From Escherichia phage vB_EcoS_IME542, in sequence record MK372342: a DNA stretch of 46,553 nt. One strand, written 5' to 3'. The notes under the pieces are model-generated. The model saw only the letters and a program-made list of their open reading frames with translations, made no database searches and was not told the origin of the DNA. Of this stretch, positions 459-40,675 are shown in pieces. The position numbers were made by a program, and so were the translations under genes. Numbering within the stretch: position 1 is the first letter of the stretch; every line of letters begins with the position of its first letter.

Positions 459-473
459 TAGCACTAATTGCTA
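459..473. promoter_or_regulatory. stand-alone copy of palindromic box TAGCA-CTAAT-TGCTA, just downstream of a minus-strand extended -10 (TGcTACAAT, 488..480) for the tail fiber gene
   Basis: Perfect inverted repeat read directly; same box occurs at 15 other intergenic sites. Confidence 0.5.
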
Positions 474-498
474 ATTTGGATTGTAGCATCTTTAAGGC

Positions 499-524
499 AT
501 AAAAAAACCTCCCGAAGGAGGTTA
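499..524 (-). terminator. rho-independent terminator after primase gene
   Basis: Minus strand reads AACCTCC-TTCG-GGAGGTT followed by TTTTTTT; overlaps stop codon. Confidence 0.7.
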
Positions 525-1445
525 ACTATTCAATAAATCACTCGCTTTATATATCTTCTTCCTGATACCGCTCTTGAATGAGTATTCATCATTTGGTATT
601 ACCACGTCAACGTTCCTGTCATCCGCAACGCAAAGCAATTCCCTATCAAGCTTGCATGCCACTCTCAGCTTGTAGTTTCTAAGCGCATAAGCAACCATCT
701 CCATGTTGTAGCTAGAGTGGCAAACAAGCACACAGCGTTTGCCAGTAGCAAGATGAACGCGAACACCATCAATCCAATTATCGACCAGATAAGCGTACTC
801 ATCATCTTTAAAGGTGCCAATAACAGCAATAGACTGGCGAGTATAATCTTTTGCAGCATAACTAACACCCCCTTCTTCATTGATAAACATTACATTGCAC
901 ATTTCTTCTGATATGCCGTCACTATAAGCCATAAAGCACGGCACTGCGTGTATTAGTTCGCCTGATTTTGTCCTGCCAGCATCAAAACCAAACTCGCTAT
1001 AAATACCCTCGTATATGCTGAGTGGAGTAGATTCTACTCTCTCAGTCCTTTCCATTATCTCCAGGCATCTTTCGTGATCAATCTGTGCGCCCATTTTGTA
1101 GAGCTGGGTTCTTGATGCTTGCTTGTTTGCTTTAACTATAACCTCAATTGGTGTTAAGTTCAGCCAGTCACCAAGCAAATTTACTGAATCGGCGAAGGAC
1201 GATCCAGTGCACTTCATGACCCATCCTATACCGGAGTCACTTCCGCATTTCGAACAAACTGCCGCGCCATTTCCTTTTTCACTGCCTATTTCGTCGGTAA
1301 ATCTGAATCTGTCAGTGCCAAAGCAGTATGGGCATGGTCCGTGCTTCTTACTTAGGTGTCTATCATTCCAACCAAGTTCCTTTGCATAAAATGATTTCCA
1401 CAATCCGGCCATCTTAGGTATAACTTCATTCTTATCGTAATTCAT
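522..1445 (-). CDS. DNA primase (zinc-ribbon, phage/plasmid primase type)
   Basis: N-terminal CPYCFGTDRFRF...CSKCG zinc-ribbon motif typical of P4/T7-type primase Zn-binding domains; 307 aa. Confidence 0.6.
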   Translation of the reverse strand: MNYDKNEVIPKMAGLWKSFYAKELGWNDRHLSKKHGPCPYCFGTDRFRFTDEIGSEKGNGAAVCSKCGSDSGIGWVMKCTGSSFADSVNLLGDWLNLTPIEVIVKANKQASRTQLYKMGAQIDHERCLEIMERTERVESTPLSIYEGIYSEFGFDAGRTKSGELIHAVPCFMAYSDGISEEMCNVMFINEEGGVSYAAKDYTRQSIAVIGTFKDDEYAYLVDNWIDGVRVHLATGKRCVLVCHSSYNMEMVAYALRNYKLRVACKLDRELLCVADDRNVDVVIPNDEYSFKSGIRKKIYKASDLLNS

Positions 1446-1921
1446 TTGCTTAACCCGTGATTTTCGTGAAAGTTGTATTTTCTCTCTGCTTCAATTCTTA
1501 CTTTATACGCCTGCTCTGGAGTATCGAAGTTCCCAAGGTGTAGATGCTTGCCGTCAACCTTGATGTGAGCCTTAAATTTTCCGTGATTTAGCTTTGCCAC
1601 TCCACAATAACCATTTGTTGATAAAACGCTAAGCTTGCAATTTCTTGAGTTACCTTGATTTGTTGTTACTCTTAGGTTTTCTATTCTGTTATCTAATTTG
1701 TTATGGTTTATATGATCAATGTAGTCGCCATTTTGAAGCTCTCCATTAAACATCTCCCACACAACTCTATGTACATAAGTCCTAAAGCCATTAACAGACA
1801 CTTTGTAATAGCCAGATGTAGATAGTGAGTTGCACTCATCGCCAACCTTAACACGTCTTGCAGTGCTAATCTTCCAATGCAATTTGCCATCTACATAGTA
1901 AAAATAATCATGCCAGTTCAT
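1442..1921 (-). CDS. HNH homing endonuclease (HNH + AP2-like C-terminus), paralog 1 of 5
   Basis: MNWHDYFYY...DHINHNKLDNRIENLRV HNH motif; shares N- and C-terminal motifs with ORFs at 20312, 32960, 42296, 43536. Confidence 0.85.
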   Translation of the reverse strand: MNWHDYFYYVDGKLHWKISTARRVKVGDECNSLSTSGYYKVSVNGFRTYVHRVVWEMFNGELQNGDYIDHINHNKLDNRIENLRVTTNQGNSRNCKLSVLSTNGYCGVAKLNHGKFKAHIKVDGKHLHLGNFDTPEQAYKVRIEAERKYNFHENHGLSK

Positions 1922-1936
1922 TTTCTTCTCTCCAAT

Positions 1937-1966
1937 AAAAAAGGATGTACCGATTATGGCACATCC
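1937..1966 (-). terminator. terminator hairpin after HTH gene whose loop carries an extended -10-like TGcCATAAT for the downstream HNH gene
   Basis: Minus strand: GGATGT-gccataatcggt-ACATCC then TTTTTTATT. Confidence 0.5.
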
Positions 1967-1972
1967 AATTCC

Positions 1973-2446
1973 TTACTCTTTAGCTTTTCGTGCTGCTTCG
2001 TTGGCGGCTTTAATTTTTCGCCACGAACGACACTCTGGCTTAGTGGCCAGTTCAGCCTCTGTAACCACGCGCAGCATGTGACGCTTTTTGCAGCGCAGAG
2101 TTAGCGGCTTGCCATTGCCGTCGAATTGCAGGTCTGGTCGGCAGAATGTGGCTCGAAAGCCTTCTCCATTTCGCTTGTAGTAGTTGTGTGAAAGCTGAGC
2201 TCCACGTGCCGATATCATTCCGCGCTTAAACCATTCTTCTACAGCCTGCGGTGTCACCTTTAGCTGCTTTGCGATATTCGCCTTTGTGCCGAAGAAATCA
2301 AGAACAATCTCCAGTCGCGCGCGTAGCCCGGCTCTTACTTCATCTTTTAAAACGTAGTAACCCGATGGTCGTTTTCGTTGTTTTTTGTCTTCAGTGCGGA
2401 CAGTTCCGTTATTGCCGTTAATGGTTCGCTTATCAACTGCATTCAT
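1973..2446 (-). CDS. HTH DNA-binding protein (candidate transcription regulator)
   Basis: 157 aa, basic; helix-turn-helix-like segment ANIAKQLKVTPQAVEEWFKRG; GAGGTGA RBS. Confidence 0.45.
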   Translation of the reverse strand: MNAVDKRTINGNNGTVRTEDKKQRKRPSGYYVLKDEVRAGLRARLEIVLDFFGTKANIAKQLKVTPQAVEEWFKRGMISARGAQLSHNYYKRNGEGFRATFCRPDLQFDGNGKPLTLRCKKRHMLRVVTEAELATKPECRSWRKIKAANEAARKAKE

Positions 2447-2459
2447 TTAATCACCTCAA

Positions 2460-2501
2460 TAGCATTTTTTGTTAAACAATAGGTTCGATAATTGCTATTA
2501 T
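2460..2501 (+). promoter_or_regulatory. promoter for helicase operon: degenerate TAGCA box plus extended -10 TGcTATTAT (2493..2501); overlaps a divergent minus-strand -10
   Basis: TAGCAttttttGTTAA then TGCTATTAT read directly; divergent intergenic region 2447..2542. Confidence 0.5.
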
Positions 2502-2542
2502 ACAGCAATGCAACGAACTAACAAACAGCTAGGATATTTAAA

Positions 2543-4537
2543 ATGCTTCCAGTAGAGCGCTTAGTAGCCAACTTTGATCAAGAGAAGATTAAGCAGATTC
2601 AGAAGGATTATCAGTTTGGAGAAATCACGCCATACCCATTCCAGTGCGTGACATTCGACCAAATAGGTAAGCACATCGCTAAGTACGAAGCGCCATTCAT
2701 AGCAGACCTGTCGGTATCGGCAGGTAAGACAATCATTCTTGCCATGATTGGTAAACGCATGGAGCAGCTTGGCCTTCCTTACATGGTGCTTTCTCGCCAG
2801 TCAGAAATCATCAGCCAGAATGCTGAAGAACTCCGTAACTTCGGTATCCGTAATAGCGTATATTGCGCTGGCCTTAACGTTAAATCTGTTTACTACCCAA
2901 CTATAGTGGCAAGTGAAGGAACGGCGGCAAACGGCTTGTTCAAGGGGCTTGGTGACTATGTTCCGGCAGTTATCGCTATTGATGAGTGTCACATGCTAAA
3001 TCATATGGATATTGTCGAAGCCGAAGAGAACGAGGAAACGTTTGAGCAGATGAGCACCGCAAAAGGTGAGATGGTTTTCAAGGATGGTGAATACACGGGG
3101 TTAACTGGTACAGGTCGTTCGCAATACACTTTAATCATTACAGAGATGAAACGCCGTTGCCGTGAGAAATACAAGCGAGAACTACGTATCTTTGGTCTCA
3201 CTGGTAGCCCATACCGTGATAACAATCATATCGTGGTAAGTAATCCTAACATTCGAGGATTTTGGCGTAAGACGGTTATGCAGGTTCCAACCAATTACCT
3301 GGTGGATTTGGGTTTTGTTGTCCCAACTGTTTACGGTGAGGTTGGTGATTTGGGTTATGATCTTGCTGAATTTGCGCCAGATGGTGATGATGGAATCAAA
3401 GACTTCAGTAAGAAAGAAATGGATGCGATGCAGGAAAAAATTCATCAAAACCAGTCCATGACGCAAAAGATTATGCAGTTCGCAGCCAAGTTTATGGAAA
3501 CTCGTAACGCAGCGCTAGTAACTTGTTCAGGCAAGCGGCATTGCGAGGAGGCAGCCGCGGCGCTTCCTGATGGCGTAACCTGGGCTATAGTAACTGACTC
3601 TACTGGTGAGAAAAAACGTCGTGAGATTCTTTCTGACGCAGCTGAAGGTAAGTATAAATTCATCTTTCAGATTGGTTGTCTCACAACCGGCGTGAACGTC
3701 CCGCCATGGGATACGTCAATAATTCTTCGGAAGGTTGGAAGCATCACGTTATTGATTCAACTTTTGGGGCGAGGTATGCGGATTCTTAAGAAGAAGCATA
3801 AGGAAATGGGAATGGTTAAGGATGATCACGTGGTGCTGGACTTCGCTGGTACTCTTGATGATATGGCAGAATTGTACTTTGACCCAATTATAGAGGAGGT
3901 GCAAGACCAGAAATTCAAGTCTTCTAGTAAAGGTGGTGACGAGCCAAGGGTATGTCCAGCTTGTAGCTATGAGAACTCGCCATTTGCTCGTCGTTGTAAT
4001 AATGTTATCGAAGGTAAAAGGTGTGAGCACTTTTTTCAGTTTCGTACCTGTGATGATATTGAAGACACGCAGACAAAAGTTACTATTAAGAAAGGTTGTG
4101 GTGAGAAGAATGATATTGCTGCTAAAAACTGCCGTTGCTGCGGAGAAATGCTTATTGACCCTAACGCAAAGCTGTCTGGAAAGATGTATCGACAAGGGGA
4201 TTGGTTGAGAGTTTACGGATTCAGTATTGGGTTAACTAAAAACCAAAACGGGATCGTTGCTCGCTATGAAATCATGGCTCACAGCGGTGACAGGTTTGTT
4301 GCTTACGAAACTTTCTTTCCAGAGAGTGATCATCGCGTTTGCTCTGTGAAGTGGAAGGCGTTTTGCCAAACTCACATCGCTAACAAAACAGAAGCATTTC
4401 GCATCGGGAGACTGCGTAATGCAAGAATGATTATGACTAACGCAAGTCAATTTCGTGAGCCTTTGCGGGTGACTCATAGAAAAAATCAGAAAGGTCAGGA
4501 TATCATTGCAAACAAATCTTTTACTATGGAGGATTGA
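2543..4537 (+). CDS. SF2 (DExH-type) helicase with C-terminal zinc-ribbon region
   Basis: Walker A VSAGKT, motif II IDECH, C-terminal CPACSY...CRCCG cysteine pairs; 664 aa. Confidence 0.7.
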   Translation: MLPVERLVANFDQEKIKQIQKDYQFGEITPYPFQCVTFDQIGKHIAKYEAPFIADLSVSAGKTIILAMIGKRMEQLGLPYMVLSRQSEIISQNAEELRNFGIRNSVYCAGLNVKSVYYPTIVASEGTAANGLFKGLGDYVPAVIAIDECHMLNHMDIVEAEENEETFEQMSTAKGEMVFKDGEYTGLTGTGRSQYTLIITEMKRRCREKYKRELRIFGLTGSPYRDNNHIVVSNPNIRGFWRKTVMQVPTNYLVDLGFVVPTVYGEVGDLGYDLAEFAPDGDDGIKDFSKKEMDAMQEKIHQNQSMTQKIMQFAAKFMETRNAALVTCSGKRHCEEAAAALPDGVTWAIVTDSTGEKKRREILSDAAEGKYKFIFQIGCLTTGVNVPPWDTSIILRKVGSITLLIQLLGRGMRILKKKHKEMGMVKDDHVVLDFAGTLDDMAELYFDPIIEEVQDQKFKSSSKGGDEPRVCPACSYENSPFARRCNNVIEGKRCEHFFQFRTCDDIEDTQTKVTIKKGCGEKNDIAAKNCRCCGEMLIDPNAKLSGKMYRQGDWLRVYGFSIGLTKNQNGIVARYEIMAHSGDRFVAYETFFPESDHRVCSVKWKAFCQTHIANKTEAFRIGRLRNARMIMTNASQFREPLRVTHRKNQKGQDIIANKSFTMED

Positions 4538-4773: not shown

Positions 4774-5189
4774 AAATCACAGATAAAGAAGATTACATTG
4801 AGTTTTACCCTGGTGCTGTAAAGTCATGCCCAAAGGAGGACGACGAACAGATCTTTTGCTCTGATTGGGTTAAGTATCATTACCCTCAGATTGTTTACTG
4901 GCACACAGTTAATGAAGGGATGAAATCAATTGGGTCAGCAAGGAAGGATGCAGCTAAAGGGCTCCTTAAGGGCGTATCAGACTGCTTATTCCTGATACCT
5001 GAATCACTTCGCGGAAAGTACCCTTTCGGAGCCATAGAGCTAAAGAGGGCTGGCAAAACCCAGGCTAGCACAGTCAGCGACGAACAAAAGTCTTTCCTTA
5101 AAAGCGTAAGAGAATCAGGTGGTTTCTCCGCTGTAGCCTATGGGCGCGAAGGTTTTCTTGCAGCATTCAAAGAAATGATTTCAAAATAG
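4770..5189 (+). CDS. VRR-NUC / PD-(D/E)XK-like nuclease
   Basis: D-x(n)-E-L-K arrangement (DCLFL...GAIELKRAGK); 139 aa; stop TAG lies inside the TAGCA box. Confidence 0.5.
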   Translation: MKITDKEDYIEFYPGAVKSCPKEDDEQIFCSDWVKYHYPQIVYWHTVNEGMKSIGSARKDAAKGLLKGVSDCLFLIPESLRGKYPFGAIELKRAGKTQASTVSDEQKSFLKSVRESGGFSAVAYGREGFLAAFKEMISK

Positions 5190-5247
5190 CACGAATTGCT
5201 AAAGACGAATTGGTGAGTTGGTGTATTATCAACTCATCGAAACGAAA
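5187..5247 (+). promoter_or_regulatory. boxed promoter element: TAGCAcgaatTGCTA, TGTATTAT -10, CATCGAAACGAAA leader
   Basis: Read directly; shares architecture with 14 other copies. Confidence 0.55.
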
Positions 5248-5267
5248 CAAGCAAAGAGAGAAAGAAA

Positions 5268-5462
5268 ATGGCTACTATCTATACTGGCAAAATGTACGAA
5301 TCACGCAAAACTGGTTATGTGTACGAGTTGGTTATCACTGAAGGCGGTTATGTGCTTGATGATAATTGTGGTTACTCATTCGAAGTTAGCCCAACCTACA
5401 AAGATGATTTAGAAACTGTTAAAAACGCATTCGGCGAAAAATTTGATGAGGTATCAGAATAA
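5268..5462 (+). CDS. hypothetical protein
   Basis: 64 aa, purine-rich RBS, downstream of boxed promoter. Confidence 0.5.
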   Translation: MATIYTGKMYESRKTGYVYELVITEGGYVLDDNCGYSFEVSPTYKDDLETVKNAFGEKFDEVSE

Positions 5463-6383: not shown

Positions 6384-7514
6384 ATGGCAACTGCAAAAAT
6401 AACCAACGAACAGCTTCGTGAAGAACTAGCGAGCGGCATGACTAACAAAGCAATAGCAGAGAAGTACGGTATGAATATTCGCAATGTTGAATTGCGTCGT
6501 AGTAAGCTAGCTAAGGCTGGAGATGGGCACGGTAGAGATGTAAGCAACCTTATTCCTCAAGGTTATGCAGTTAAGGGTGTATCAAGTCTTATTGGTGCTG
6601 ATGGTGAGATTAAGCAGCAGTGGGTTAAGTCTGACATCGACAAAGAGAAGCAAGAAGAGATGATGTTTCAGGCTATTGAAGCGCTTACTGATGAATTGCC
6701 GCGCGAGAAGCCTAGAGCATTAAGAGTTGGTTTGTGGGAAGACACTTTAAGTCTTTATCCTGTTTTTGATATGCACATTGGAGCAATGGCGCACCATGCA
6801 GAATGCGGGGAGAATTACAGTACTGAAATCGCAGAGCGTGTCCTTAATGATTATTTTGATTACGCTGTTGCTAAGGCTCCTTGTTCTAAGAAAGCAGTAT
6901 TGCTGATTGGTGGCGACTTCCTCCACTCAGATGGATTGGAAGCTGTTACGCCTACTAGTCATCATGTGCTGGACCAGGATAGCCGATACCATAAGCTTGT
7001 TTACGTAGCGGTTCGAGCGACTCGGCGAGCAATTAGCCGGATGCTTGATAAGCATAAAGAAGTTGAAGTTCAGATTATTCCAGGTAACCACGACCTTTCG
7101 GGTATGATTTGGTTGCGTGCAGCAATGGCGGCATTCTATATGGATGAGCCAAGGGTAAATGTTGATGCTTCACCTGCTGCGTTGCACGTAACTCAGTTTG
7201 GCAAGACGCTTCTTGGATACTGTCATGGTCATGAGCTTCGCAAGCCAGATACTCGCTTATCAACTTTGGCACGTGACCACCGCAAGGCGTTTGGTGAATC
7301 AGAATATGTTTATACCCATTCGGGCCATTATCACCATCAAACGATTACAGAAGGTAACTTGGGTATTGATGAGTCTCATGGTCAGCTTGGTGCGAAAGAT
7401 GCTTACAGCGCAAACGGTGGTTATCGCTCTTATCGCCAGGCGTCTGTAATAATCTACAGCCCTAAATTCGGCGAGATTGGTCGATTCACTTGTCGCCCAG
7501 AAATGTTTAGCTAA
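6384..7514 (+). CDS. calcineurin-like metallophosphoesterase with N-terminal HTH-like domain
   Basis: Motifs DMHIG, GGDFLHSDG, IPGNHDL, GHYHH; N-terminal MTNKAIAEKYGMNIRNVELRRSKL. Confidence 0.6.
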   Translation: MATAKITNEQLREELASGMTNKAIAEKYGMNIRNVELRRSKLAKAGDGHGRDVSNLIPQGYAVKGVSSLIGADGEIKQQWVKSDIDKEKQEEMMFQAIEALTDELPREKPRALRVGLWEDTLSLYPVFDMHIGAMAHHAECGENYSTEIAERVLNDYFDYAVAKAPCSKKAVLLIGGDFLHSDGLEAVTPTSHHVLDQDSRYHKLVYVAVRATRRAISRMLDKHKEVEVQIIPGNHDLSGMIWLRAAMAAFYMDEPRVNVDASPAALHVTQFGKTLLGYCHGHELRKPDTRLSTLARDHRKAFGESEYVYTHSGHYHHQTITEGNLGIDESHGQLGAKDAYSANGGYRSYRQASVIIYSPKFGEIGRFTCRPEMFS

Positions 7515-7572
7515 TAGCACTTTTTGCATAACCAATGCCGTAGAAATGCGGCATAATCACCGCATCGAAACT
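7515..7572 (+). promoter_or_regulatory. boxed promoter element (TAGCActtttTGCAT, hairpin TGCCG/CGGCA, CATAAT, CATCGAAAC)
   Basis: Read directly. Confidence 0.5.
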
Positions 7573-7598
7573 AGATAAACTAAACGAGTAAACACAAA

Positions 7599-7775
7599 AT
7601 GACTAAAATGATTTATTGCACCAAAAACAATTCCAAGACCCTGCCATTTACAGTCAACCAGCCGTACAATGCAGAGTACCAAGGTGACGGATATTACAAG
7701 ATTTACGGCGACGATATGACGTGGATTTTAGCGCCGATTGATGGTTCGTTAGTTGAATTTATTATCGCAGATTAA
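7599..7775 (+). CDS. hypothetical small protein (58 aa)
   Basis: Hand-translated MTKMIYCTKNNSKTLPFTVNQPYNAEYQGDGYYKIYGDDMTWILAPIDGSLVEFIIAD; follows boxed promoter. Confidence 0.4.
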   Translation: MTKMIYCTKNNSKTLPFTVNQPYNAEYQGDGYYKIYGDDMTWILAPIDGSLVEFIIAD

Positions 7776-9343: not shown

Positions 9344-10927
9344 TTACCCCAGCAGTCTTGGATTGATGTAAATTTTATCACCAATCAGGCACGTATAGTT
9401 TTTTTCGTCCAGCATCGGAATCAAATGGTCCTTAATACGAGTCATGATTCCAGCTTGAGCTTCAAAAGGTTTAACCTTTCGCGCAGCTTCATACAATGAG
9501 CGAACACCAACGACACCCTTACCATTTTTTCCTTGCTTAATCAGAATATCAACCAGCTTATTCATCTCAGCATTATCACCGGCGTGACCAGCGGCACTAG
9601 CGGATGACAAATAAGTCTTGCTTAGTTCGTTAAAAATCATAACCGCCTCCTGCATTGTCTCAAGCTCAATCTCCCTGGACTTCTGGGGGCTCGACCCTGC
9701 TGGTGCGAACCAGTTACGAATAACGTGCAGCACAGAGGCGATACGAATTGCTTGCTTATCAAACTTACCTAGAGCGCCACGTAACATTGTGTGAGAGTAC
9801 TTACCACCATCACCAAGGTGCGGTTCCATTTCCTGACGCGCGCGGTTCAGGTAACACATTGAAGAGGCACTTACAGTTAGTTTCACTTCGACTTCACTCA
9901 TAATCTCATGAACGAGACGGAAGTAATCAGCCTTCAGCCCACCGTCAATAGCCTCATATGTTGAGTCACCATTCTCGTCAACAAACACGCGGTCTCCAAG
10001 GAATGACTTCTCACGCACAAGCAAGAAACGTTCTGACACACCGATACCACGCGCACCAGCATTCATGATCGCGTTGATGGTCTCATCCTGTGCGATAACA
10101 GAGATGCAGCCCATAGCGACAAAGCTCATGTTATTTTCAGCGTTCGCACGCGCAATAGAAACGTTACCAGCATCCCATGCTTTCAGCACAAGCTCGCTGT
10201 TCGTTTTCTTTGAGCCATCACCATAGGTCATGCCAAGTAGTGAGTTTACGCTCGTTGCCTCATCAGAGATTACTGCGAAGTTGCCCTGTCGGTTGTTTAT
10301 TCGCGCAAGACCTTCCGGCGTGGTGTCGGATACGGGGAAAACGATATCGCACAGCTTTTCCAGCTTCTCTTCTAAATCTTCTTTTTCCTCAAAAAGTGAA
10401 GCCATCTCTGACGGAGATTTTTCCTGCTTCATCTCTTTGGATAATGCAGATAGTTTGGCAATAATCTTTTTGCGCTCGCGCTTTCGCACTTCATTAATCC
10501 GCTCAGTCTCAGCAATCATTGGGGCAATTGAAAGCGAGTTAATTGCTGATTTACCAGTTGATGGTGGCTGGCTTGTTACGACGTAGAGCGCGGTTGGCTG
10601 CTGATTTCCGTGATACTCAACAGTAAATCGACCAAGCATGGCGGCAGAAATGCACCCCAGAAAGTGCATATAAGCTGAAGACTCAGGGAATTGAACCGAA
10701 CGAGCAATGTTAGCTGATAACTTGCCCACAACATCAATATCATTACCTAGTGAGATTACAGGGTACTTATCATTTGCAGCATCAATCTCGACCGGAGCCT
10801 TCCAGAATGATTGGGACTGTCGATAACCATTAGCATTAATAGCCACGCGAAGCGGTGGAAGGTTGTCGGTCGCAGCAATTGCCATAACCTGCTCAACAGA
10901 TAGTTTATCTTCGTTGAAATCAAACAT
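9344..10927 (-). CDS. P-loop NTPase, putative replication-associated ATPase (deviant Walker A QPPSTGKS)
   Basis: Walker A-like PPSTGKSA and Walker B-like AVISDEAT; ATG 10927 with GGAG RBS preferred over track GTG 10969; 527 aa. Confidence 0.5.
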   Translation of the reverse strand: MFDFNEDKLSVEQVMAIAATDNLPPLRVAINANGYRQSQSFWKAPVEIDAANDKYPVISLGNDIDVVGKLSANIARSVQFPESSAYMHFLGCISAAMLGRFTVEYHGNQQPTALYVVTSQPPSTGKSAINSLSIAPMIAETERINEVRKRERKKIIAKLSALSKEMKQEKSPSEMASLFEEKEDLEEKLEKLCDIVFPVSDTTPEGLARINNRQGNFAVISDEATSVNSLLGMTYGDGSKKTNSELVLKAWDAGNVSIARANAENNMSFVAMGCISVIAQDETINAIMNAGARGIGVSERFLLVREKSFLGDRVFVDENGDSTYEAIDGGLKADYFRLVHEIMSEVEVKLTVSASSMCYLNRARQEMEPHLGDGGKYSHTMLRGALGKFDKQAIRIASVLHVIRNWFAPAGSSPQKSREIELETMQEAVMIFNELSKTYLSSASAAGHAGDNAEMNKLVDILIKQGKNGKGVVGVRSLYEAARKVKPFEAQAGIMTRIKDHLIPMLDEKNYTCLIGDKIYINPRLLG

Positions 10928-10939
10928 CTTAATACTCCA

Positions 10940-11000
10940 TCTCGTTAATATGCGGGCATTATATAACACCCGCTCAGTATGTCTTTATCTTTTAGTGCTA
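10940..11000 (-). promoter_or_regulatory. boxed promoter element (degenerate box, -10 TATAAT within hairpin loop GCGGG/CCCGC)
   Basis: Minus strand reads TAGCACTAAAAGATA ... GAGCGGG-tgttatataat-GCCCGC ... AACGAGATGGAG. Confidence 0.45.
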
Positions 11001-11354
11001 TTATGAGTATTTTGCTTCAAACCTGTAGTCGCCACAGATAGTAACAAATCCAACATCCTCATCCCTATATAGCTGCCAGGCGGTTCCTTCTTTGTCATAG
11101 ATATATCCAGCGCGCTGACCAAGTCCAGCATGGATATCAACTTGATATCGCTTTCCTTCAGTGAAGTATTTGCGAATAGATGAGTGATGGTTAACCTTTG
11201 TACAATATAGAGTCTTGGTCTTGATGTATTTTCCGCGCTCTGTAAGATTCTGCCATTTTCCATTAACCTTAATCTGCTCTACACCATCTTTAACGCGGGC
11301 CTTGAACAAATTGTTATCGCTTGATACCCAGTTTTTTGTAATCGTAGTAGTCAT
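11001..11354 (-). CDS. hypothetical protein
   Basis: 117 aa ORF. Confidence 0.45.
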   Translation of the reverse strand: MTTTITKNWVSSDNNLFKARVKDGVEQIKVNGKWQNLTERGKYIKTKTLYCTKVNHHSSIRKYFTEGKRYQVDIHAGLGQRAGYIYDKEGTAWQLYRDEDVGFVTICGDYRFEAKYS

Positions 11355-11691: not shown

Positions 11692-11699
11692 TTTCTTTA

Positions 11700-11770
11700 C
11701 CTTTCGTTGTTTCGTTTCGATGGAAAGATAATACCGCATCCTTGCGATTTCGTTTTAGCAATTCGTGCTA
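11700..11770 (-). promoter_or_regulatory. boxed promoter element (perfect TAGCAcgaatTGCTA, hairpin CGCA-agga-TGCG, TATTAT, CATCGAAACGAAA)
   Basis: Read directly on minus strand. Confidence 0.55.
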
Positions 11771-11916
11771 TTTCTTGCCTTTTCTATCGCCTTGAGCATA
11801 ATCTCGTGGCTTTCCAGCAAGTCCTCACGAAACCAGTCACCACAAGGCCAGCCCTTTCCGCTATAGGCGCTGATGACCTCAAGATCGAAATAATTTATCT
11901 CAGATGGTAGTAGCAT
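11755..11916 (-). CDS. hypothetical small protein (53 aa) whose C-terminus NSTNC-stop is encoded by the palindromic box
   Basis: Hand-translated MLLPSEINYFDLEVISAYSGKGWPCGDWFREDLLESHEIMLKAIEKARNSTNC; GGAGG RBS. Confidence 0.35.
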   Translation of the reverse strand: MLLPSEINYFDLEVISAYSGKGWPCGDWFREDLLESHEIMLKAIEKARNSTNC

Positions 11917-12831: not shown

Positions 12832-12843
12832 TTTTTTATCTCC

Positions 12844-13204: not shown

Positions 13205-13221
13205 TTTCGTGTCTCCGTGAG

Positions 13222-13285: not shown

Positions 13286-13305
13286 TTCGTTGGATTTATT
13301 GATTC

Positions 13306-28868: not shown

Positions 28869-28872
28869 TGCA

Positions 28873-28933
28873 TAGCACTTTTTGCTAAAGCACTTATTCA
28901 GCTTTACTGTATAGTTATCTCATCGAAACGAAA
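28873..28933 (+). promoter_or_regulatory. boxed promoter element (perfect box TAGCActttttGCTA, hairpin AAAGC/GCTTT, TATAGT, CATCGAAACGAAA)
   Basis: Read directly. Confidence 0.55.
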
Positions 28934-28948
28934 TGAGAGATTAAAGAA

Positions 28949-29906: not shown

Positions 29907-32888
29907 ATGGCAACAAATGAATTAGCCGGAATCACACTAGCCGTAGACGTCTCGCAGGTAGACAGAGGTACACAGTCCCTGCGGAAGTTCAGGCAGGCAA
30001 ACCAGCAGGCCGCTTCCGGCATTAGTGAGTTCGTCAACGCCGAGCAGGTTGCAAAGAATCAAGCCAGAGACACAGCTCGCGCACTGGCTGAACGGCAATC
30101 ATCTTTGGCTAAATTGCAAACGGCTATTGACCCAACTGCGGCAAAGTTCCGTAAACTCCAGGAGGCTGCTGTAGGTCTTGATAAGGCTTTCGCGGCTGGA
30201 GTAGTTCCTGATGAGGAGTTTTTCCGCTTAGGTGAGGCGCTTGAAACGCAGAACGCAAAACTTGCTCGTTCACGTGCGGCACTAACTGAAGAGGGTAGAG
30301 CGGCGGCGCAAGCTGCAAAGGATAAGGCAAAGGCAAAGGCTGAAGCGGATAGATTCATTGCATCACTTGAGCGTCAGGCTCAGGCGGCAACATTGACGCG
30401 AGAGGAGTACCTAAAGTTACAAGCGGCCCAGCTTGGCGTAAGTTCTCAGGCGGCGCCTATTATTGACAGAATCGCCGATGCATCACGGAAGGCAAACACC
30501 CAGCTAATTGCTCAGAGCAAGGCCTTTCAACGCTCTGGCTTAAGCGCAGGTCAATACAAGGCTGCAATCTCTCAATTGCCAGCGCAGATTACAGATATTG
30601 GGACATCACTTGCTGGCGGCATTCCGATTTGGCTTATTGCAATTCAGCAAGGTGGACAAATTAAGGATGCATTTGGAGGTATTGGTAACACATTTAGTTT
30701 TGCGCTTGCTGCTTTAAACCCGTTCAACGTAGCAGTTGGGGTTCTCGGTGGCGCGCTTGTTGCTTTAGGCGTCGGTGCTGCGCAGGCTGAAAGTGAATTC
30801 AGGGCGTTAAACTCCGCCATTGCGTTCTCAAACAACTCCACAATCGCATCAATCTCGCAGGTTAGAGAGTTGGTTAGCTCTGTTTCTGATGCCACTGGTG
30901 CAACCAGAGGACTTGTGACTAGCATCGCAACAAGCCTTGTTGAGCAAGGAAACCTTACGCTAACGCAGATTGACAAGATTACTAAATCAACAGCCAGATG
31001 GGCTCAGTTGACAGGTAAGGATGCAAAGGAAATTACTGGTTACTATAACCAGATTGCGAGCGACCCAATTCAAGGACTTGCTGATTTAGACAAGAGGTTT
31101 AACTTCCTTACACAGGGGCAGTTAACAACAATTGAAAGATTGAGAGAGACTAGGGGTGAGGTTGAAGCCGTAACTGCTGCTATTGATATATTTAGCAAAT
31201 CACAAGAGGCAAACCTTAACGATATTGCAGCCCAGCTTACTCCTCTTGAATTGGCCTGGAATGACTTCAGGAAGTACATATCTGATGTATGGGATGCAAT
31301 TAGTCGCAGAACGGTTGGGGCGCTAAACCTGTTTGTTGACGTAATCGCCGGAACAATTGAGCAAATTAGGGTCTTCATCAACCAGGGTGATGTGCTGATT
31401 GGTGAATTCGTAATTAGCGCAACACAGGCACTGCAGAACATCCCCGGCCTTGATGGTGTTGGTGATGATGTTGTCAAGGGACAGCAGAAGATTATCGATG
31501 CCGCTAAGAAGCAAAACATTGAGCTAGAGAAGTCTATCAAGGAGCGCGATGCCAGAATCAGAGAAGGAGAACTTGGCTACGTTACTCGCAGAGAAAATCA
31601 GAATACCAATGAGCAGTCAGGCACGGATGAGGAGTTTGCAAAAAGGAAGAAAGCGCTTCAGGATGAACTTGATGCGATCAAGAAGAGCAGGAAAGAAGAA
31701 AATGGTAGGGTTAAAGAGCAAAGAGACCTTACAATTGGTTACGAATCTGGCGTACTTGCACTACAGGCACAACTCAAGGTGCTTCAGGAAAACAGGGATA
31801 TTGGCGCAGTAATAAGCAATGAGCGCAAGCAGTATCTTCAGGAGGTTGCAAAATTCCAGATTCTTGAGCAAAGGCAGCGTGATGGCTCAATAAAAAAAGA
31901 GCAAGCAAGACTTATTCTCGAGAAAGATAAAGTTCTGGAACTAGCAAGGCAGAAAGCTGAACTTGGCGATCAGATTGTTTTGCAGGAAAGAGCTAATAAG
32001 TTAGCTGAGGATAACAGGAAGAAGATTCTTCAGATCAACAACGAAGCAAATAACATTGGTTTTGGCGCCGGATTATCATCTCGTGAGCAGCAGAGAGCCA
32101 GAGAGATTCAGTCGCTTCAGTCCAATCAGTTAAACAAAGGTGGCTCTGTAGATGACACTGATTTTCAGGCTTTACTCGAAGCAAGGCGTAATTTCTATGC
32201 TCAAGAGGATGCGCTACGTGAAAACTGGCTTGCTGGCGTGAATCAATCCTTTGCTAACTGGGCTGAAAGCGCTACAGATGCTTTCTCAATTGCCGGAAGT
32301 TTAACCACTAAGGTATTTGAAGGCATTACTGACCAGATTACTGACCTTGTAACCACTGGAGAAACAAACTTCAGGGAGTTTACTGTAAACATACTCAAGC
32401 AGATTGCAAGAATTGCAACTCAGCTTCTTATTGTTAAGGCTATCGAGTCTAGCTTAAGTAGCTTTGGTGGTACTGGTGGCGCGATTGGGTCTATCGCATC
32501 TGCGATTGGCGGTGGCTTTGCTAGCGGCGGTTACACTGGAGACGGTGGAAAATATCAACCAGCAGGCACTGTACATAAGGGGGAGTTTGTATTCACAAAA
32601 GAAGCAACAAGCAGGATTGGTGTTAAAAACCTTTACGCATTGATGAGAGGTTACGCAAATGGCGGTGTTGTAGGCGGGCCTTCGGGCTATGCAAATGGCG
32701 GCTTGGTTTCTGGTGGTGCAGATGTTAATGTTAGCGGAATAACCGTTAACGTTAATAGTGGGATTGGAAGCGACCCGGAACAGGCCAAGGCGCTGCAAAA
32801 TGGCGTTAAGGCAATTGTAGCAGAAGAGATTGCTCAGTCTTTCCAGCAGGGCGGCAGAGCATTTGCTTATTTGAGAGGTTTCAACTAA
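29907..32888 (+). CDS. tail tape measure protein
   Basis: 993 aa, long alpha-helical Ala/Gln/Glu-rich N-terminal half, Gly-rich C-terminus; position after G/GT. Confidence 0.85.
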   Translation: MATNELAGITLAVDVSQVDRGTQSLRKFRQANQQAASGISEFVNAEQVAKNQARDTARALAERQSSLAKLQTAIDPTAAKFRKLQEAAVGLDKAFAAGVVPDEEFFRLGEALETQNAKLARSRAALTEEGRAAAQAAKDKAKAKAEADRFIASLERQAQAATLTREEYLKLQAAQLGVSSQAAPIIDRIADASRKANTQLIAQSKAFQRSGLSAGQYKAAISQLPAQITDIGTSLAGGIPIWLIAIQQGGQIKDAFGGIGNTFSFALAALNPFNVAVGVLGGALVALGVGAAQAESEFRALNSAIAFSNNSTIASISQVRELVSSVSDATGATRGLVTSIATSLVEQGNLTLTQIDKITKSTARWAQLTGKDAKEITGYYNQIASDPIQGLADLDKRFNFLTQGQLTTIERLRETRGEVEAVTAAIDIFSKSQEANLNDIAAQLTPLELAWNDFRKYISDVWDAISRRTVGALNLFVDVIAGTIEQIRVFINQGDVLIGEFVISATQALQNIPGLDGVGDDVVKGQQKIIDAAKKQNIELEKSIKERDARIREGELGYVTRRENQNTNEQSGTDEEFAKRKKALQDELDAIKKSRKEENGRVKEQRDLTIGYESGVLALQAQLKVLQENRDIGAVISNERKQYLQEVAKFQILEQRQRDGSIKKEQARLILEKDKVLELARQKAELGDQIVLQERANKLAEDNRKKILQINNEANNIGFGAGLSSREQQRAREIQSLQSNQLNKGGSVDDTDFQALLEARRNFYAQEDALRENWLAGVNQSFANWAESATDAFSIAGSLTTKVFEGITDQITDLVTTGETNFREFTVNILKQIARIATQLLIVKAIESSLSSFGGTGGAIGSIASAIGGGFASGGYTGDGGKYQPAGTVHKGEFVFTKEATSRIGVKNLYALMRGYANGGVVGGPSGYANGGLVSGGADVNVSGITVNVNSGIGSDPEQAKALQNGVKAIVAEEIAQSFQQGGRAFAYLRGFN

Positions 32889-32931
32889 TAGCACAAAATG
32901 GTAAAGCCAAAAGGATTTGGCTTGCTATAAT
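32889..32931 (+). promoter_or_regulatory. boxed promoter element in front of HNH gene (box TAGCAcaaaaTGGTA, hairpin AGCCAAA-agga-TTTGGCT, extended -10 TGcTATAAT)
   Basis: Read directly. Confidence 0.55.
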
Positions 32932-32959
32932 CAACTCATTAAAATCATAAGGAGATAAA

Positions 32960-33430
32960 ATGAACTGGAATGATATTTTTGATTATAGAAATGGCGTTCT
33001 TTATTGGAAGATAAAGCCAGCAATACAATACAATATTGGCGATGTTGCTGGTTTCTTTTGTGAAAAGAGAGGTTACATAATCGTTCAATACAAGCGTGTA
33101 AAGGTAATGGCCCATAGGGTTGTATGGGAAATGTTTAATGGAAGAATAGCTGATGACATGGAAATTGATCACATTGACCACTCTAGAAAAAACAACAACA
33201 TATCAAACATAAGACTGGTAACGAAGAGTGATAACATGAAAAACAAAAGCATGTACTCATCAAATAAAACTGGCGTTGTCGTGGTTAGTTACTGCAAAAC
33301 AAAGAAAAAATTTATATCAAAGATAGGTAAGAGAATTCTATTAACAACAAGCAATTTTGAAGAGGCTGTAAAAGCGAGAAAAAGCGCAGAGATAGCCCTT
33401 AATTATCACAAAAATCACGGGGGTAAATAA
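32960..33430 (+). CDS. HNH homing endonuclease, paralog 3 of 5 (between tape measure and gpM-like gene)
   Basis: MNWNDIFDYRNGVLYWKIK..., EIDHIDHSRKNNNISNIRLVT, C-terminal NYHKNHGGK; AT-rich codon usage. Confidence 0.85.
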   Translation: MNWNDIFDYRNGVLYWKIKPAIQYNIGDVAGFFCEKRGYIIVQYKRVKVMAHRVVWEMFNGRIADDMEIDHIDHSRKNNNISNIRLVTKSDNMKNKSMYSSNKTGVVVVSYCKTKKKFISKIGKRILLTTSNFEEAVKARKSAEIALNYHKNHGGK

Positions 33431-38900: not shown

Positions 38901-39372
38901 TCAGTACGGTGTTAAGTTAGGTCTAAAATATAATGGGGTTGAGTATAGCGCAGGGATGAGCATGGAGCTTGTTGGCAGTGGTACTGGCGTTAAGAGTCAG
39001 TTCATCTTTGACGCAAACAGATTCGCTATCAGTAACGGGATTGGATCTGGTTCCGGTCAGTGGTCATTGCCTTTTGTTGTTGAGAGCAACCAGGTGTTCA
39101 TCCAGAGCGCCGTGATCAAGGATGGATCAATCACTAATGCCAAGATTGGTAACAGAATTCAATCAAATAACTACGTTCAAGGAAGTCAGGGGTGGGCTAT
39201 TGATAAATCTGGTTTTGCTGAACTAAGTAATGCCACCGTTAGAGGAAGCCTTTACGCTAACAATGGTAACTTCGCGTTTAACGGAACAGGCAACACTGTT
39301 CAGATTAACGGTAACGGAATCACTGTTAACCTACCAGGTGGAGGAATGGTTGTAGTTGGAGTATGGAGTTAA
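35944..39372 (+). CDS. central tail fiber / host specificity protein, lambda gpJ-like
   Basis: 1142 aa; recognisable gpJ segments (SGTWNGLFKMAWSNNPAWVLYDLVTNRRYG, IDKWGLYEAAQFCDQMVPDGKGGMEPRY, RRGRWLLKTNL). Confidence 0.85.
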   Translation: MAQMIKTNMRLCDMAEEIKIYGAKGGSQKQHQPVEQEDNLISLNKVKVLLAVADGEVDPNFSLKDLYLADVPVQNQNGTYNYEGVRAEFRAGTQYQDYIAGLDGANSEIQASREITNDTPYIIAVNNSQLSAIRVKLFWPRLIKQESNGDLNGTTCEYAIDLSVNGGAYQQYTRGVANGKTTTGYDRSIRVNLPAEFDSALVRIRKITADSTSSTLVNGMQITTYQEVIDAKFRYPLTALVYVEFGSDLFPNGIPTISIKKRWKLIQVPTNYNPESRTYSGTWNGLFKMAWSNNPAWVLYDLVTNRRYGLDQRELGVEIDKWGLYEAAQFCDQMVPDGKGGMEPRYLCDMVVQNKVEAYTLIRDVCSIFRGLTFYDGEKIGIVVDKPRNPSYIFTNDNVVNGLFSRTFASEKSLYTTANVQFDDVENNYQQDVEPVFELEATRRFGFNPVDLTAIGCTRRSEANRRGRWLLKTNLRSETISFTTGLEGMIPMIGEVIAVNDAAWSSNYQLNLSGRIESVQGLQVFTPFKVDAAPGDRILLNKPDGSPEARTIASVSEDGRTINLNTAFSFVAQQDTVFAIDKDNLALQQYVVTGIQKADTDGQDSFQYTITAVEYDPNKYDEIDYGVNIIDRPTSIVEPDRLSPPENLTVSSYSKVVQGLSVETMVIGWDKAPYAKTYNVQWRKENGNWINVPRTASTEVDIEGIYAGIYDVRVRSVSDTENVSAWSDIVTVSLTGKIGRPSAPTVITASTDEVFGIRVKWGFPEGSGDTAYTELQQVADNGDGTYNPDNASLLTLLPYPAYEYWHTPIQPGKVIWYRARLIDRIGNTSDWSDFARGMSTDDANIINEYIKVDIEGSEGFKYLEQNAIQKNQDIQNQAEAIIENALANDTDVRRMTKENGARKAEYVQAVNLIADETQARVEALTQLKAQIDGEVVASITEVQTALATETEARTTADTALRAQLGDTQAALNEKLDSWVDAESAGAQYGVKLGLKYNGVEYSAGMSMELVGSGTGVKSQFIFDANRFAISNGIGSGSGQWSLPFVVESNQVFIQSAVIKDGSITNAKIGNRIQSNNYVQGSQGWAIDKSGFAELSNATVRGSLYANNGNFAFNGTGNTVQINGNGITVNLPGGGMVVVGVWS

Positions 39373-39377
39373 AATAT

Positions 39378-39400
39378 AGCCCCCTTCTGGGGGCTTTTTT
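39378..39400. terminator. terminator hairpin between convergent J gene and minus-strand RBP gene
   Basis: AGCCCCC-ttct-GGGGGCT followed by TTTTTT. Confidence 0.65.
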
Positions 39401-40370
39401 AGTACATGTTTGGTATGTACGGTAACCGCATTGAGATGTTGGTGTTGAATGGGAACCGCGCGCCAGACTGCGTTGAGTAGTTACCATAAACACTTCCTTT
39501 ATGCGCCCTAACCTGACCATTTGACATTGCAACGCCCTTGTATCTAAGGTTGTTGTATCTACCAGTAACCTCAACCATCGCGCCGCACCTTAGTATTGGG
39601 AAAAACCCATTACCTATTGATTGGTATGAGTTGGAAAGCTGGAGGAATCCACTTAGTACAAAAGGTCGCTTGACGCTGGAAAACACTATCTGGCCAGAGG
39701 CGTTTGACATTGTTAAACCAGGCCCTGCGGTTGGTGCTGTATTGTTGAATATAACAAGATCGATAGTTACTGATGCTGATACATTATCAATTCCTGTGTA
39801 GGTATTGTTTCTACATAGTATTCTTTTCCCGTCAAACTCAAGGGTGACATTTGGGTTATTCCACCTTCCAAACGGTATTCCAGTCATCGGGAGTGTATAG
39901 CTTCCATTCACAGTCACAGTTCCGACATACTGAGCAGTCAGGAGTCTACTGTTTGATGTTATTGCAGTGAAGTTAGTCGAATCACTGACAAATATCCCCT
40001 CACTGCCTGGTGATTCACCAAGAACCTCAAAACCTTGCGCACCAAATCCAATCAAACGTCCTGATGAGCCGTTAAAGTTACCTATACTTATCCTTCCAGT
40101 TGAGTTATTGACCCTGGAAAATCCATTCATGAAATAAACCTCAGGTATGAAGTTGAAGTCATAAACGTCAATAGCCTTTGTCGGCAATATGAAGGCCTCA
40201 GATCCTTGAGTCATTGTTAGTCCGAAGTCTCTAGTGCCATTGGCGGAATTAAACGTGGAGTTACTGCTAAGGCTTCCTGTTACTGATGGCGCTCTTAAAC
40301 CTGCAGTTATCTCCATTCTCGGTCTTCCGTCATTCAAGTCTATCAAGATACCCTGAGGCATTATTTCCAC
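39399..40370 (-). CDS. putative receptor-binding protein (antisense, downstream of J)
   Basis: 323 aa Asn/Ser/Thr/Gly-rich protein; co-transcribed with upstream lipoprotein gene; call is by position and composition. Confidence 0.45.
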
Positions 40371-40591
40371 TCCTTGGTGCCATGATCTTTAACTGATCCA
40401 GAGAAGTTTTTGATACCATCCCAGCGGATATCTGTTTCACCTGAAGCTACAACTACACCTCCTTTCCATTTAGCAACACATGAGCCGTTAACTTCAGTCG
40501 CGCACCAACCGTCAGGTCGGGGTCCGGAAGAACAACCTACAGTCATGATTACTGCTGCCGCGATTATTGCTGATTTGATGAAGTTAGTCAT
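40361..40591 (-). CDS. small lipoprotein, candidate superinfection-exclusion (Cor/Llp-like) protein
   Basis: [22 protein letters not shown] signal peptide with lipobox; 76 aa; AAGGA RBS; boxed promoter upstream. Confidence 0.5.
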
Positions 40592-40609
40592 TTTGTATTC
40601 CTTAGTGAG

Positions 40610-40675
40610 TGTGTTTCGTTTCGATGGAGTAACTATAGCAAAGGATGATTACGGAGTCTTTAGCTATTCGTGCTA
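40610..40675 (-). promoter_or_regulatory. boxed promoter element (box TAGCAcgaatAGCTA, extended -10 TGcTATAGT, CATCGAAACGAAACAC)
   Basis: Read directly on minus strand. Confidence 0.55.

Follow-up and report, generated by a model that had tools for sequence, protein, structure and literature searches.

A 21-nt direct repeat, aaATAGCACnnnTTGnTAAAA, was described in the 2024 re-annotation of phage TLS at 18 intergenic sites, co-oriented with transcription, about 76 nt upstream of start codons and falling into A, T and G subgroups (PMC11447400). The repeat was noted also in T1, Rtp and Rogue1; only three sigma70 promoters were found in TLS, and the function of the repeat was left open, with stoperator, enhancer or UP-element ideas offered (PMC11447400). 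In T4-type phages, elements termed PeSLs consist of a stop codon, a promoter, a stem-loop situated between -35 and -10 or over the -10, a Shine-Dalgarno sequence (SD) and an ATG; their promoter and terminator activity was shown experimentally, the latter for one PeSL (PMC2839356). PeSLs recombine (mini-circles) and take part in the shuffling of genes as modules (PMC2839356, PMC4122927). Here we describe a composite intergenic element, a 19-bp box followed by a -10 hexamer, a hairpin and a conserved leader, in the complete, circularly permuted genome of the T1-like siphovirus vB_EcoS_IME542 (Drexlerviridae; sequence record MK372342); this whole stretch of 46,553 nt is referred to as the window.

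The element, which had been noted in a preliminary description of the window, is not new as a repeat: its box was already published as the 21-nt direct repeat of T1, TLS and Rtp (PMC11447400). On sequence grounds the box is a member of that family: it shares with the TLS repeat the sequence, the intergenic place, the orientation relative to transcription and the distance to the start codon, as well as the same three subgroups defined by the central triplet (GAA, TTT, AAA/TAA). Not contained in the TLS report (PMC11447400) are the constant distance of 20 bp to a -10 hexamer, a start and a leader that are both conserved, a nested hairpin under sense-strand selection, stop codons overlapping the box, and reversed, operator-like copies. 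The -10 link, the conserved start, the nested hairpin and the stop overlap were not found in the other T1-like genome papers that were read, nor did the literature yield start-site mapping or a transcriptome for T1 or Drexlerviridae. The repeat thus forms the upstream part of a rigid module with promoter features, in which box, 20 bp, -10 and conserved start follow one another, and this would account for the missing promoters across the family.

The box and its cassette in the window

The exact palindrome TAGCA-N5-TGCTA occurs seven times in the window against 0.10 expected, and the 19-mer AATAGCACNNNNTGCTAAA, with at most three mismatches, occurs 18 times against 2.44 expected, a count reached in none of 100 shuffles. 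All 16 sites listed in the preliminary description proved real, at the coordinates given, in this 19-mer search, in which the sites were printed with their flanks, although the list had missed a full copy at 42770(+), outside its range, and the degenerate copies at 1997(-) and 16757(+). The inventory comprises 16 full cassettes, one stand-alone reversed box and three degenerate copies. The box consensus is AATAGCAC(G/T/A)(A/T)(A/T)TTG(C/T)TAAA, and the order within a cassette is the box, AATAGCACnnnTTG(C/T)TAAA, 20 nt, the -10 hexamer, 6 nt, C-A(+1)TCGAAACGA, SD and ATG. The 19-bp box is separated from the hexamer (TATTAT, CATAAT, TATAAT, TATAGT or TATCAT) by 20 nt in 14 copies, 21 nt in two and 19 nt in one. 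The C-A start context follows 6 nt after the hexamer, and the exact leader string ATCGAAACGA begins at the predicted transcript start (+1) in eight copies. The SD and ATG lie 14–35 nt downstream of the predicted +1, and the distance from the box start to the ATG is 65–86 nt. Orientation is shared with the downstream gene in 16 of 17 copies. The stop codon of the upstream gene is inside or abuts the box in 11–12 of the 17 full-box copies, either as TAG at box positions 3–5, as TAA at positions 16–18 or as TAA immediately before the box.

The +1 was predicted from the -10 hexamer, which was placed at -12 to -7; on this numbering the box covers -51 to -33 and its dyad centre is at -42. No -35 hexamer was present at 16–18 bp from the cassette -10 hexamers, and a consensus promoter scan of positions 13000–21000 flagged a single cassette, 13287(-), with a weak ATGACC -35. 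The earlier suggestion that the box occupies a position suited to an activator agrees with these coordinates, which, together with the lack of a -35, correspond to what would be a class II geometry. Several other identities for the box were considered and rejected. TTGCTA within the box cannot serve as a -35 hexamer, being 22 bp from the -10 and having no alternative -10 17 bp downstream of it. Read as an extended -10 (TGcTAAAA), the box lacks the last T, which is indispensable, and nothing is conserved at the place of the corresponding -35. In sigma54 promoters (TGGCAC-N5-TTGC) the GG and GC elements are one helical turn apart; the corresponding part of the box, TAGCAC-N3-TTGC, has AG in place of GG, and its spacing falls 2 bp short.

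Conservation across T1-like phages

The closest annotated relatives of the window are ACG-M12 and vB_EcoS-12210I (hereafter 12210I; Drexlerviridae, Braunvirinae), with about 82% DNA identity, and its gene order agrees with that of T1, TLS and Rtp. The genomes scanned for the box were those of T1, TLS, Rtp, 12210I, Klebsiella phage Sushi, Citrobacter phage HCF1 and Vibrio phage Vc1. This search across related phages, which had been proposed as a check, returned the same layout in T1, TLS, Rtp and the Klebsiella, Citrobacter and Vibrio relatives, with 10–21 cassette-type units per genome; scanned with the pattern of the repeat, TLS, T1 and Rtp gave 18–22 units each. A -10-like hexamer stood at exactly 20 nt in 95 of 142 box matches in seven genomes, every other offset accounting for 12 or fewer, and 116 matches (82%) passed the -10 test, compared with 9% of random positions. 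The scan was enlarged by 79 further loci taken around the gene of a 157-amino acid (aa) regulator, giving 86 loci plus the window in total, and here 310 of 497 distinct units had the hexamer at exactly 20 nt. A search blind to the box, based on the -10 and leader only, recovered 176 units, 70% of which carried a good box at the exact offset, so that the association of box and -10 holds both ways.

In column statistics of the family, based on units selected for A(-11) and T(-7), conservation was 76–97% in the columns of the box, with G(-47), C(-46), C(-44) and G(-38), at 78–84%, among the best-conserved columns. Downstream of the box, conservation was 77% for G(-14), 46% for T(-15), 66% for C(-1) and 84% for A(+1). 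The TGn extended -10 claimed previously was thus partly sustained: G(-14) is common, but the full TGn is present in only about half of the units. The leader consensus, A-T-C-G-A-A-A-C-n-A, is conserved at 45–75% per position and is more uniform in the lineage of the window than in T1 or TLS. Pairing to the 3' end of 16S rRNA peaks at +10 to +14, meaning that the conserved leader represents nearly the whole 5' untranslated region before the ribosome-binding site. Across seven genomes the central-triplet subgroups contained 36 (G), 52 (T) and 19 (A) units, and copies of the window fall into all three. The TTT-type boxes of HCF1 have four T instead of five, which places the left half-site 1 bp closer. 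The rigid distance between box and -10, the start context, G(-14) and the SD peak 12–20 nt after +1 are as expected under the promoter reading of the preliminary description, and the core of this rigid, oriented, family-wide module bears every sequence hallmark of a -35-less sigma70 promoter.

A hairpin nested in the cassette

The segment from -32 to +3 folds with a mean of -9.5 kcal/mol, against -3.9 kcal/mol for shuffles keeping the hexamer, and 54% of units reach p≤0.01. Using a strand-symmetric helix finder, a helix of at least five Watson-Crick pairs was detected in 99 of 116 units, and in 176 of 217 non-redundant units (81%) versus 36% of shuffles. Internal mismatches in these 217 units were G·T in 106 cases and A·C in 34 (p=8e-10), whereas shuffles gave 328 and 323; this excess of G·T indicates that pairing is selected on the sense strand. 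The hairpin therefore most likely acts in read-through RNA, the non-template DNA strand being a much less plausible seat of the selection. A DNA cruciform and a hairpin on the antisense strand are ruled out by the same asymmetry, and the view of the hairpin as a feature of promoter DNA had to be given up, because selection on the sense strand points to RNA; the structure is annotated as a terminator in many relatives. Such annotations cover several cassette hairpins in the T1 and Sushi records, and a textbook terminator is exemplified by TLS CCCGC-tacg-GCGGG-TTTTGTATTAT. In an Rfam search of the window a tRNA gene was the sole match, and the cassette RNA fits no known RNA family.

Two hairpin designs were recognized. 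In design (a) the stem-loop occupies the spacer upstream of the -10, with its 3' end at about -13 to -7; in design (b) it encloses the -10, which lies in the loop, with a 5' arm near -24 to -16 and the -6 to -1 discriminator, in some cases prolonged to +3, as the 3' arm, 3' arms ending at -1 to +4. Design (b) is associated with TATAGT and a GAA-type box, and design (a) with TATTAT or CATAAT and a TTT-type box. At the site after the VRR-NUC gene, the stem sequence and even the design differ by lineage while a hairpin is retained, with compensatory changes such as GAGTTG/CAACTC versus GGGGTG/CACCTC. The covariation check that had been proposed for the hairpin was positive in register-free tests, and in a fixed-register test on 100 units 113 double-sided changes were counted for design (b) against 81.5±8.9, exceeding all 500 shuffles. 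A single-register test of design (a) gave a weak signal because the register differs among copies, for which reason the register-free tests are the informative ones. Pairing is thus kept while the sequence varies, as had been noted, but the AGGA loop, thought to be frequent, occurs in five window copies and is specific to this lineage. An SD-like decoy in the 5' arm or the AGGA loop was also considered and rejected, the anti-SD signal at -26 to -20 being weak (mean -1.6 kcal/mol) and explained by G-richness.

Reversed boxes and box-less promoters

The tail-fibre promoter, TGCTACAAT at 488..480(-), is followed by a reversed box at 475..457, the two spanning 457..488, and then by an SD and the ATG near 428. 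The operator-like arrangement noted here in the preliminary description was recovered, with the box at about +1 to +20, and it is conserved in relatives: the order terminator, TGnTAnAAT, reversed box, SD and ATG(MAIY..) is kept in Rtp, 12210I, T1 and more than 15 relatives from IMG/VR. The distance from the -10 to the reversed box is 5–11 nt in Braunvirinae, T1 and uncultivated relatives.

The second reversed arrangement is found at the gene of the 157-aa regulator (1973..2446(-)), which has a canonical promoter with a -35 TTGTTA at 2524..2519 and a -10 TATAAT at 2502..2497(-). A canonical -35/-10 promoter is present at this gene in the window, 12210I/Rtp, T1, TLS and Sushi. Its -10 overlaps the -10 of the divergent helicase cassette (2496..2501) on the opposite strand, and the box of that cassette lies at about +20 to +38 of the regulator's own transcript, just before the regulator SD, an arrangement conserved across the family. 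Judged from sequence, the layout of the regulator/helicase intergenic region is that of a putative autoregulated switch.

A second, box-less promoter type was observed before late genes, consisting of a strong terminator hairpin with a T7 run, 11–13 nt and a full extended -10. One copy, TGCTATAAT at 18022–18030 (region 17987–18054), is predicted to drive a small open reading frame (ORF) at 18055 ahead of terS, and the other is the tail-fibre promoter itself, TGCTACAAT at 488..480(-) (region 480–520). The first rightward early gene (DUF7174, 13889..14407) is likewise box-less and is preceded, in 13819–13888, by a canonical TTGATA-16-TACTAT with an upstream TG; its leader CATCTTAACGA resembles the cassette leader.

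Candidate box-binding proteins

The invariant G/C positions in the box indicate recognition by a sequence-specific protein rather than by the alpha subunit of RNA polymerase. Two phage proteins with a predicted helix-turn-helix (HTH) are candidates. Both are present in every complete family locus, and the phyletic pattern does not separate them; the only record without the second, a 376-aa protein, is that of HCF1, itself showing frameshifts and duplications. In the HCF1 record (L006) the regulator/helicase intergenic region contains a tandem duplication (33999–34247 and 39811/40003 flagged), the regulator gene is frameshifted and a homologue of the 376-aa protein is missing. As the duplication and the frameshift resemble an assembly error, gene absences in HCF1 are not to be trusted.

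The first candidate, the 157-aa regulator (1973..2446(-)), is a homologue of T1 gp23, Rtp52 and TLS gp57. Its structural model was confident, with a predicted local distance difference test score (pLDDT) of 86, and the core matched all-alpha Cro proteins (Xfaso1, N15). The putative recognition helix, TPQAVEEW, has Thr at H0, Pro at H1, Ala at H3 and Trp at H7 in common with N15 Cro. The consensus operator of N15 Cro is TTATAGCTAGCTATAA (PMC6649833), a sequence that includes ATAGC, the core of the box. Conservation in the regulator is highest not in the HTH but in a basic N-terminal arm, DKRTxNGNNGTxRGxDKKxRKRP, predicted to be disordered; the arm includes an AT-hook-like RKRP and is invariant from Escherichia to Vibrio phages. 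This arm may contact DNA or a host protein.

The second candidate, the 376-aa protein (6384..7514(+)), is a homologue of T1 gp16 and combines an HTH, a beta-hairpin linker and a metallophosphoesterase fold in a universally conserved fusion. The N-terminal three-helix HTH is of the LuxR/GerE/sigma-region-4 type, with matches to Pfam GerE (0.014) and an EsrB profile (0.013); a note by the annotators of Sushi and the model helices 8–16, 21–28 and 32–44 provide a further basis for it. Its recognition helix is conserved (R33, V35, E36, R38). LuxR-type activators typically bind dyads near -42. No PDB sequence match was detectable for the protein, and a fold search with the model (pLDDT 72) returned generic metallophosphoesterase matches only, with weak E-values. 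Elsewhere it is annotated as 'DNA repair exonuclease'. Candidate readers of the box, as far as the sequences allow, are thus either of these two proteins or a host factor, with no choice possible among them.

Copies of the cassette and genome context

On the rightward strand, the cassette of the helicase gene (2543..4537) occupies 2458..2542(+), with the box at 2458–2476 and the -10 TATTAT at 2496–2501. The full cassette at 5185..5267(+) has a perfect box in which TAG is the stop of the VRR-NUC gene, and a 12-bp hairpin around the -10 TATTAT; with a predicted +1 at 5236 it would drive 5268..5462. The full cassette at 7513..7598(+), 3' of the stop of 6384..7514, has a hairpin ATGCCG/CGGCAT ending in the -10 CATAAT and a predicted +1 at 7564(+), and is placed to drive 7599..7775, upstream of the lysis genes. 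At 14937..15018(+), TAG in the box of a full cassette is the stop of 14630..14941, and the hairpin GCCA-AGGA-TGGC precedes CATAAT, with +1 predicted at 14988(+). The copy at 15233..15262(+) is truncated, a left half-box being fused to catcctgactgg and TATAAT (15257–15262); an internal deletion has removed the right half-box together with some of the spacer, about 15 nt in comparison with relatives, and the unit is intact in 12210I (27335(-)), Rtp (1367(+)) and T1. The full cassette at 15671..15745(+) also supplies a stop, TAG in its box ending 15415..15675, and has the -10 CATAAT and a predicted +1 at 15722. A further full cassette at 16311..16385(+), with the hairpin GGGTAA/TTACCC around TATAGT, precedes an ORF starting at 16386, its putative target. 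The degenerate box AAGAGCAAGAATAGCTAAA at 16757..16831(+) retains its spacing and TATAAT and is predicted to drive 16832..17020; orthologues with an intact box are present in 12210I (25610(-)) and Rtp (4027(+)). The cassette at 28871..28948(+) directly follows the terminator of the major tail gene, has a predicted +1 at 28922 and probably drives 28949..29197. In the full cassette at 42770..42843(+) the box is perfect and its TAA is the stop of the HNH gene 42296..42787; it has a hairpin GGATA/TATCC around TATAGT and is predicted to drive the Erf gene 42844..43494. The J-gene copy of the window, at 35944, has drifted into coding sequence (ATGGCACAAATGATCAAA).

Five full cassettes point leftward. 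The first of the leftward arm, at 13205..13287(-), has a hairpin GGAGT/ACTCC around TATTAT and a spacing of 21 nt and would drive 12899..13204. It is followed in the same direction by full cassettes with perfect boxes at 12832..12916(-), with the hairpin GCCA-AGGA-TGGC upstream of TATAGT ahead of a 79-codon ORF, and at 11692..11772(-), with CGCA-AGGA-TGCG upstream of TATTAT ahead of a 36-codon ORF, these ORFs being the genes that they are predicted to drive. The full cassette at 10928..11002(-), with the hairpin GCGGG/CCCGC around TATAAT, stands before the DUF3987 helicase-like gene 9344..10927, which it would drive, and that at 40592..40677(-), with 21-nt spacing, TATAGT and no clear hairpin, before 40361..40591, its predicted target. 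Predicted +1 positions on this strand include 11721, 12865, 13235 and 40625.

Three HNH genes, not two as counted before, carry their own cassette: 1442..1921(-), 20312..20836(+) and 32960..33430(+). All three are inserted relative to 12210I, at the regulator/primase, terminase/portal and tape measure/minor tail junctions, respectively. The cassette of the first (1922..1997(-)) has a degenerate box, AGCAGCACGAAAAGCTAAA, in the 3' end of the regulator gene and a strong hairpin, GGATGTGCC/GGTACATCC, with CATAAT in the loop, followed by a T-run, SD and ATG; it is the only window copy that is a canonical terminator, and homologues of this unit, likewise of the terminator type, are found after the regulator gene in T1 (35995-), TLS (35240-) and Sushi (27390-). 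In the cassette of the second (20247..20311(+)), the large terminase gene ends at the TAG within the box, the hairpin is ACTCA-AGGA-TGAGT and the leader is short; 12210I has no cassette at the terminase/portal junction. That of the third (32887..32959(+)) lies right after the tape-measure stop and has the hairpin GCCAAA-AGGA-TTTGGC and the -10 TATAAT. Cassettes travel with the inserted HNH genes as well and, by analogy with PeSLs, are probably portable regulatory modules.

The 46.5 kb contain five HNH_3 endonuclease genes altogether: 1442–1921(-), 20312–20836(+), 32960–33430(+), 42296–42787(+) and 43509–44048(+). A single tRNA gene is located at 17666–17737(+), where tRNA-Arg(tct) is annotated in relatives. 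The tail-fibre gene spans the ends of the window, starting near 428(-) and continuing downwards from 46553; as both ends are inside this gene, the window is a circular permutation of the complete genome.

Discussion

On balance we favour the view that the element serves T1-like phages as a general-purpose promoter cassette, activator-type and -35-less, in which an attenuator hairpin is embedded, a view that we consider rather more probable than its competitors taken together. Four functions would be packed in about 75 bp between two genes. Most likely, the box replaces the -35 element as a dock for a sequence-specific protein, itself probably phage-encoded, which would recruit the host sigma70 RNA polymerase in a class II-like manner. 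The -10 hexamer, the frequent G(-14) and the C(-1)A(+1) context would set the predicted transcript start, and the A/C-rich, unstructured leader AUCGAAACGA running into the SD would probably help the polymerase to leave the promoter and ribosomes to load. Within read-through transcripts that come from upstream, the hairpin may form a terminator, an attenuator or a 3'-end stabiliser and so insulate each cassette. The reversed box downstream of the two box-less promoters, those of the tail fibre and the Cro-like regulator, may act as an operator, in which case the box-binding protein would be both activator and repressor.

Several observations weigh against this account. In T1 (25021, 8362) and TLS (24908), boxes that lack a -10 stand directly before the first codon of terS or of tail gene J, and the box can thus have a promoter-independent role. 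Conservation of the box is asymmetric, the left half being near invariant and the right half variable, and in HCF1 the halves can stand 1 bp closer, which together make a poor fit to a symmetric dimer. The recognition helix of the Cro-like candidate varies across the family while the box does not. Units with the full TGn, about half, might fire without any factor. The leftward early genes, too, begin with a box promoter (13287(-)), and a need for a phage activator there would mean that the genes concerned are not immediate-early. As to the hairpin, a terminator-like T-rich tail follows only 30 of the 217 structures (~14%), and in the window that at 1997(-) only, and the commonest design encloses the -10 and is followed by ATCGAAAC, with no obvious mechanism of termination.

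Some of these points lend themselves to a purely negative role, in which the box is an operator or 'stoperator' of the Cro-like protein that, later in infection, shuts some 20 constitutive extended -10 promoters or blocks read-through polymerases, with no activation involved. Structurally, the 157-aa regulator comes closest to Cro repressors, ATAGC is common to TTATAGCTAGCTATAA and the box, reversed boxes lie downstream of two promoters, and boxes without a -10 in T1 and TLS, together with the full TGn motif of about half of the units, would be accommodated; a stoperator analogy was proposed by the TLS authors (PMC11447400). We nevertheless regard this explanation as quite unlikely, because a repressor site needs neither 1-bp precision nor a fixed orientation to the -10, whereas the distance is exactly 20 nt in 310 of 497 units; because promoters with no -35, half of them without the full TG, should be weak unaided; and because -51 to -33 overlaps neither the -10 nor the start, where repression works best. 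Reading of the box by the host machinery, as an UP-like element for the alpha C-terminal domains or sigma or as the site of an abundant host factor, would dispense with a phage protein and would suit the box promoters before the earliest leftward-arm genes. The middle of the box is rich in A/T and has T- and A-tracts, and the box is the same in phages on Escherichia, Klebsiella, Citrobacter and Vibrio, as would fit a conserved host partner; the likeness to UP elements was raised by the TLS authors (PMC11447400). UP elements, however, have no invariant G/C, whereas the box keeps G(-47), C(-46), C(-44) and G(-38); it also lies 8–9 bp nearer the -10 than the UP consensus and extends to -33, and it is not an UP element by these features. 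TTGCTA, 22 bp from the -10, is beyond the reach of sigma region 4. Among host factors, Lrp has a consensus, YAGHAWATTWTDCTR, that appears to resemble TAGCA-N5-TGCTA, but the invariant C at box position 8 conflicts with it. Reading by the host thus seems improbable to us, with a small chance of being correct.

The sense-strand selection on the variable hairpin raises the further idea that the conserved parts function mainly at the RNA level, within polycistronic transcripts. The box hairpin UAGCA-N5-UGCUA (a 5-bp stem and 5-nt loop, as large as lambda boxB) would then combine with the variable hairpin and a single-stranded AUCGAAACGA into a nut-like antitermination or RNA-processing signal before each gene. 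The commonest box variant, TGTTA, retains a G·U pair, and hairpin-terminators punctuating the genome would suit an antitermination system. Beyond the C/T dimorphism at box position 15, however, mismatches in the box are about 16 of the A·C type to about one other G·T, the left half never covaries, the rigid distance to the -10 and the C-A start context are promoter features at the DNA level, and there is no match to an Rfam family. With one wobble-type dimorphism and no general preference for G·U, the box as an RNA hairpin was rejected, and we hold the RNA explanation as a whole to be very unlikely.

The activator-type reading can be carried further. T1-like phages, described as using unmodified host transcription, might run a dedicated middle-gene transcription system in which a phage protein, that of 6384..7514 or that of 1973..2446, reads the box in place of a -35 at about 20 promoters per genome, the box doubles as an operator at the regulator and tail-fibre genes, and the RNA hairpin enclosing the -10 is a new co-transcriptional insulator without a U-tract; in this full form the proposal is a speculative one that we think unlikely to be right in every part. 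In the family concerned, the associated regulator gene is present in more than 800 sequenced phages, many of which are used in therapy and in work on defence systems; the cassettes, as compact, insulated promoter parts, are potentially useful in phage engineering.

Among described systems, class II activator promoters such as phage Mu Pm with Mor (site at about -51 to -33) and those with LuxR/TraR-type sites near -42 share with the cassette a dyad-like site near -42 over the -35 position, a poor or absent -35 and a strict spacing to the -10. The cassette differs from them in the strongly asymmetric conservation of its site and in its number of about 20 promoters per genome, and its activator is only predicted. 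The middle promoters of T4, with the MotA box (a/t)(a/t)TGCTT(t/c)A and an extended -10, are served through sigma appropriation by AsiA/MotA; these promoters resemble the cassette in using the host sigma70 polymerase with no -35, an extended -10 type core and a TGCT-containing upstream box. The MotA box is, however, centred at -30, 11–13 bp from the -10, whereas the T1-type box ends 20 bp from it, and no homologue of MotA or AsiA was seen among the proteins examined. L5 stoperators are, like the box, many short asymmetric intergenic sites with one orientation relative to transcription, but they are bound by a lysogenic repressor and have no fixed spacing to a -10, whereas the box is locked to its hexamer and the relatives are virulent. 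PeSLs show the same layout as the T1-type cassette from the upstream stop to the SD and ATG, with a stem-loop in or over the promoter that includes G-T pairs, and both occur in tens of copies, mostly before small genes of unknown function, and with inserted genes. PeSLs have a consensus sigma70 -35 and an AT-rich UP region and are strong unaided early promoters; the T1-type cassette has, in place of the -35, the specific 19-bp box, which lies 5 bp farther upstream. With no sequence homology between the two and different phage families carrying them, the cassettes described here extend the idea of a portable promoter/terminator cassette from T4-type myoviruses to an unrelated family of siphoviruses.

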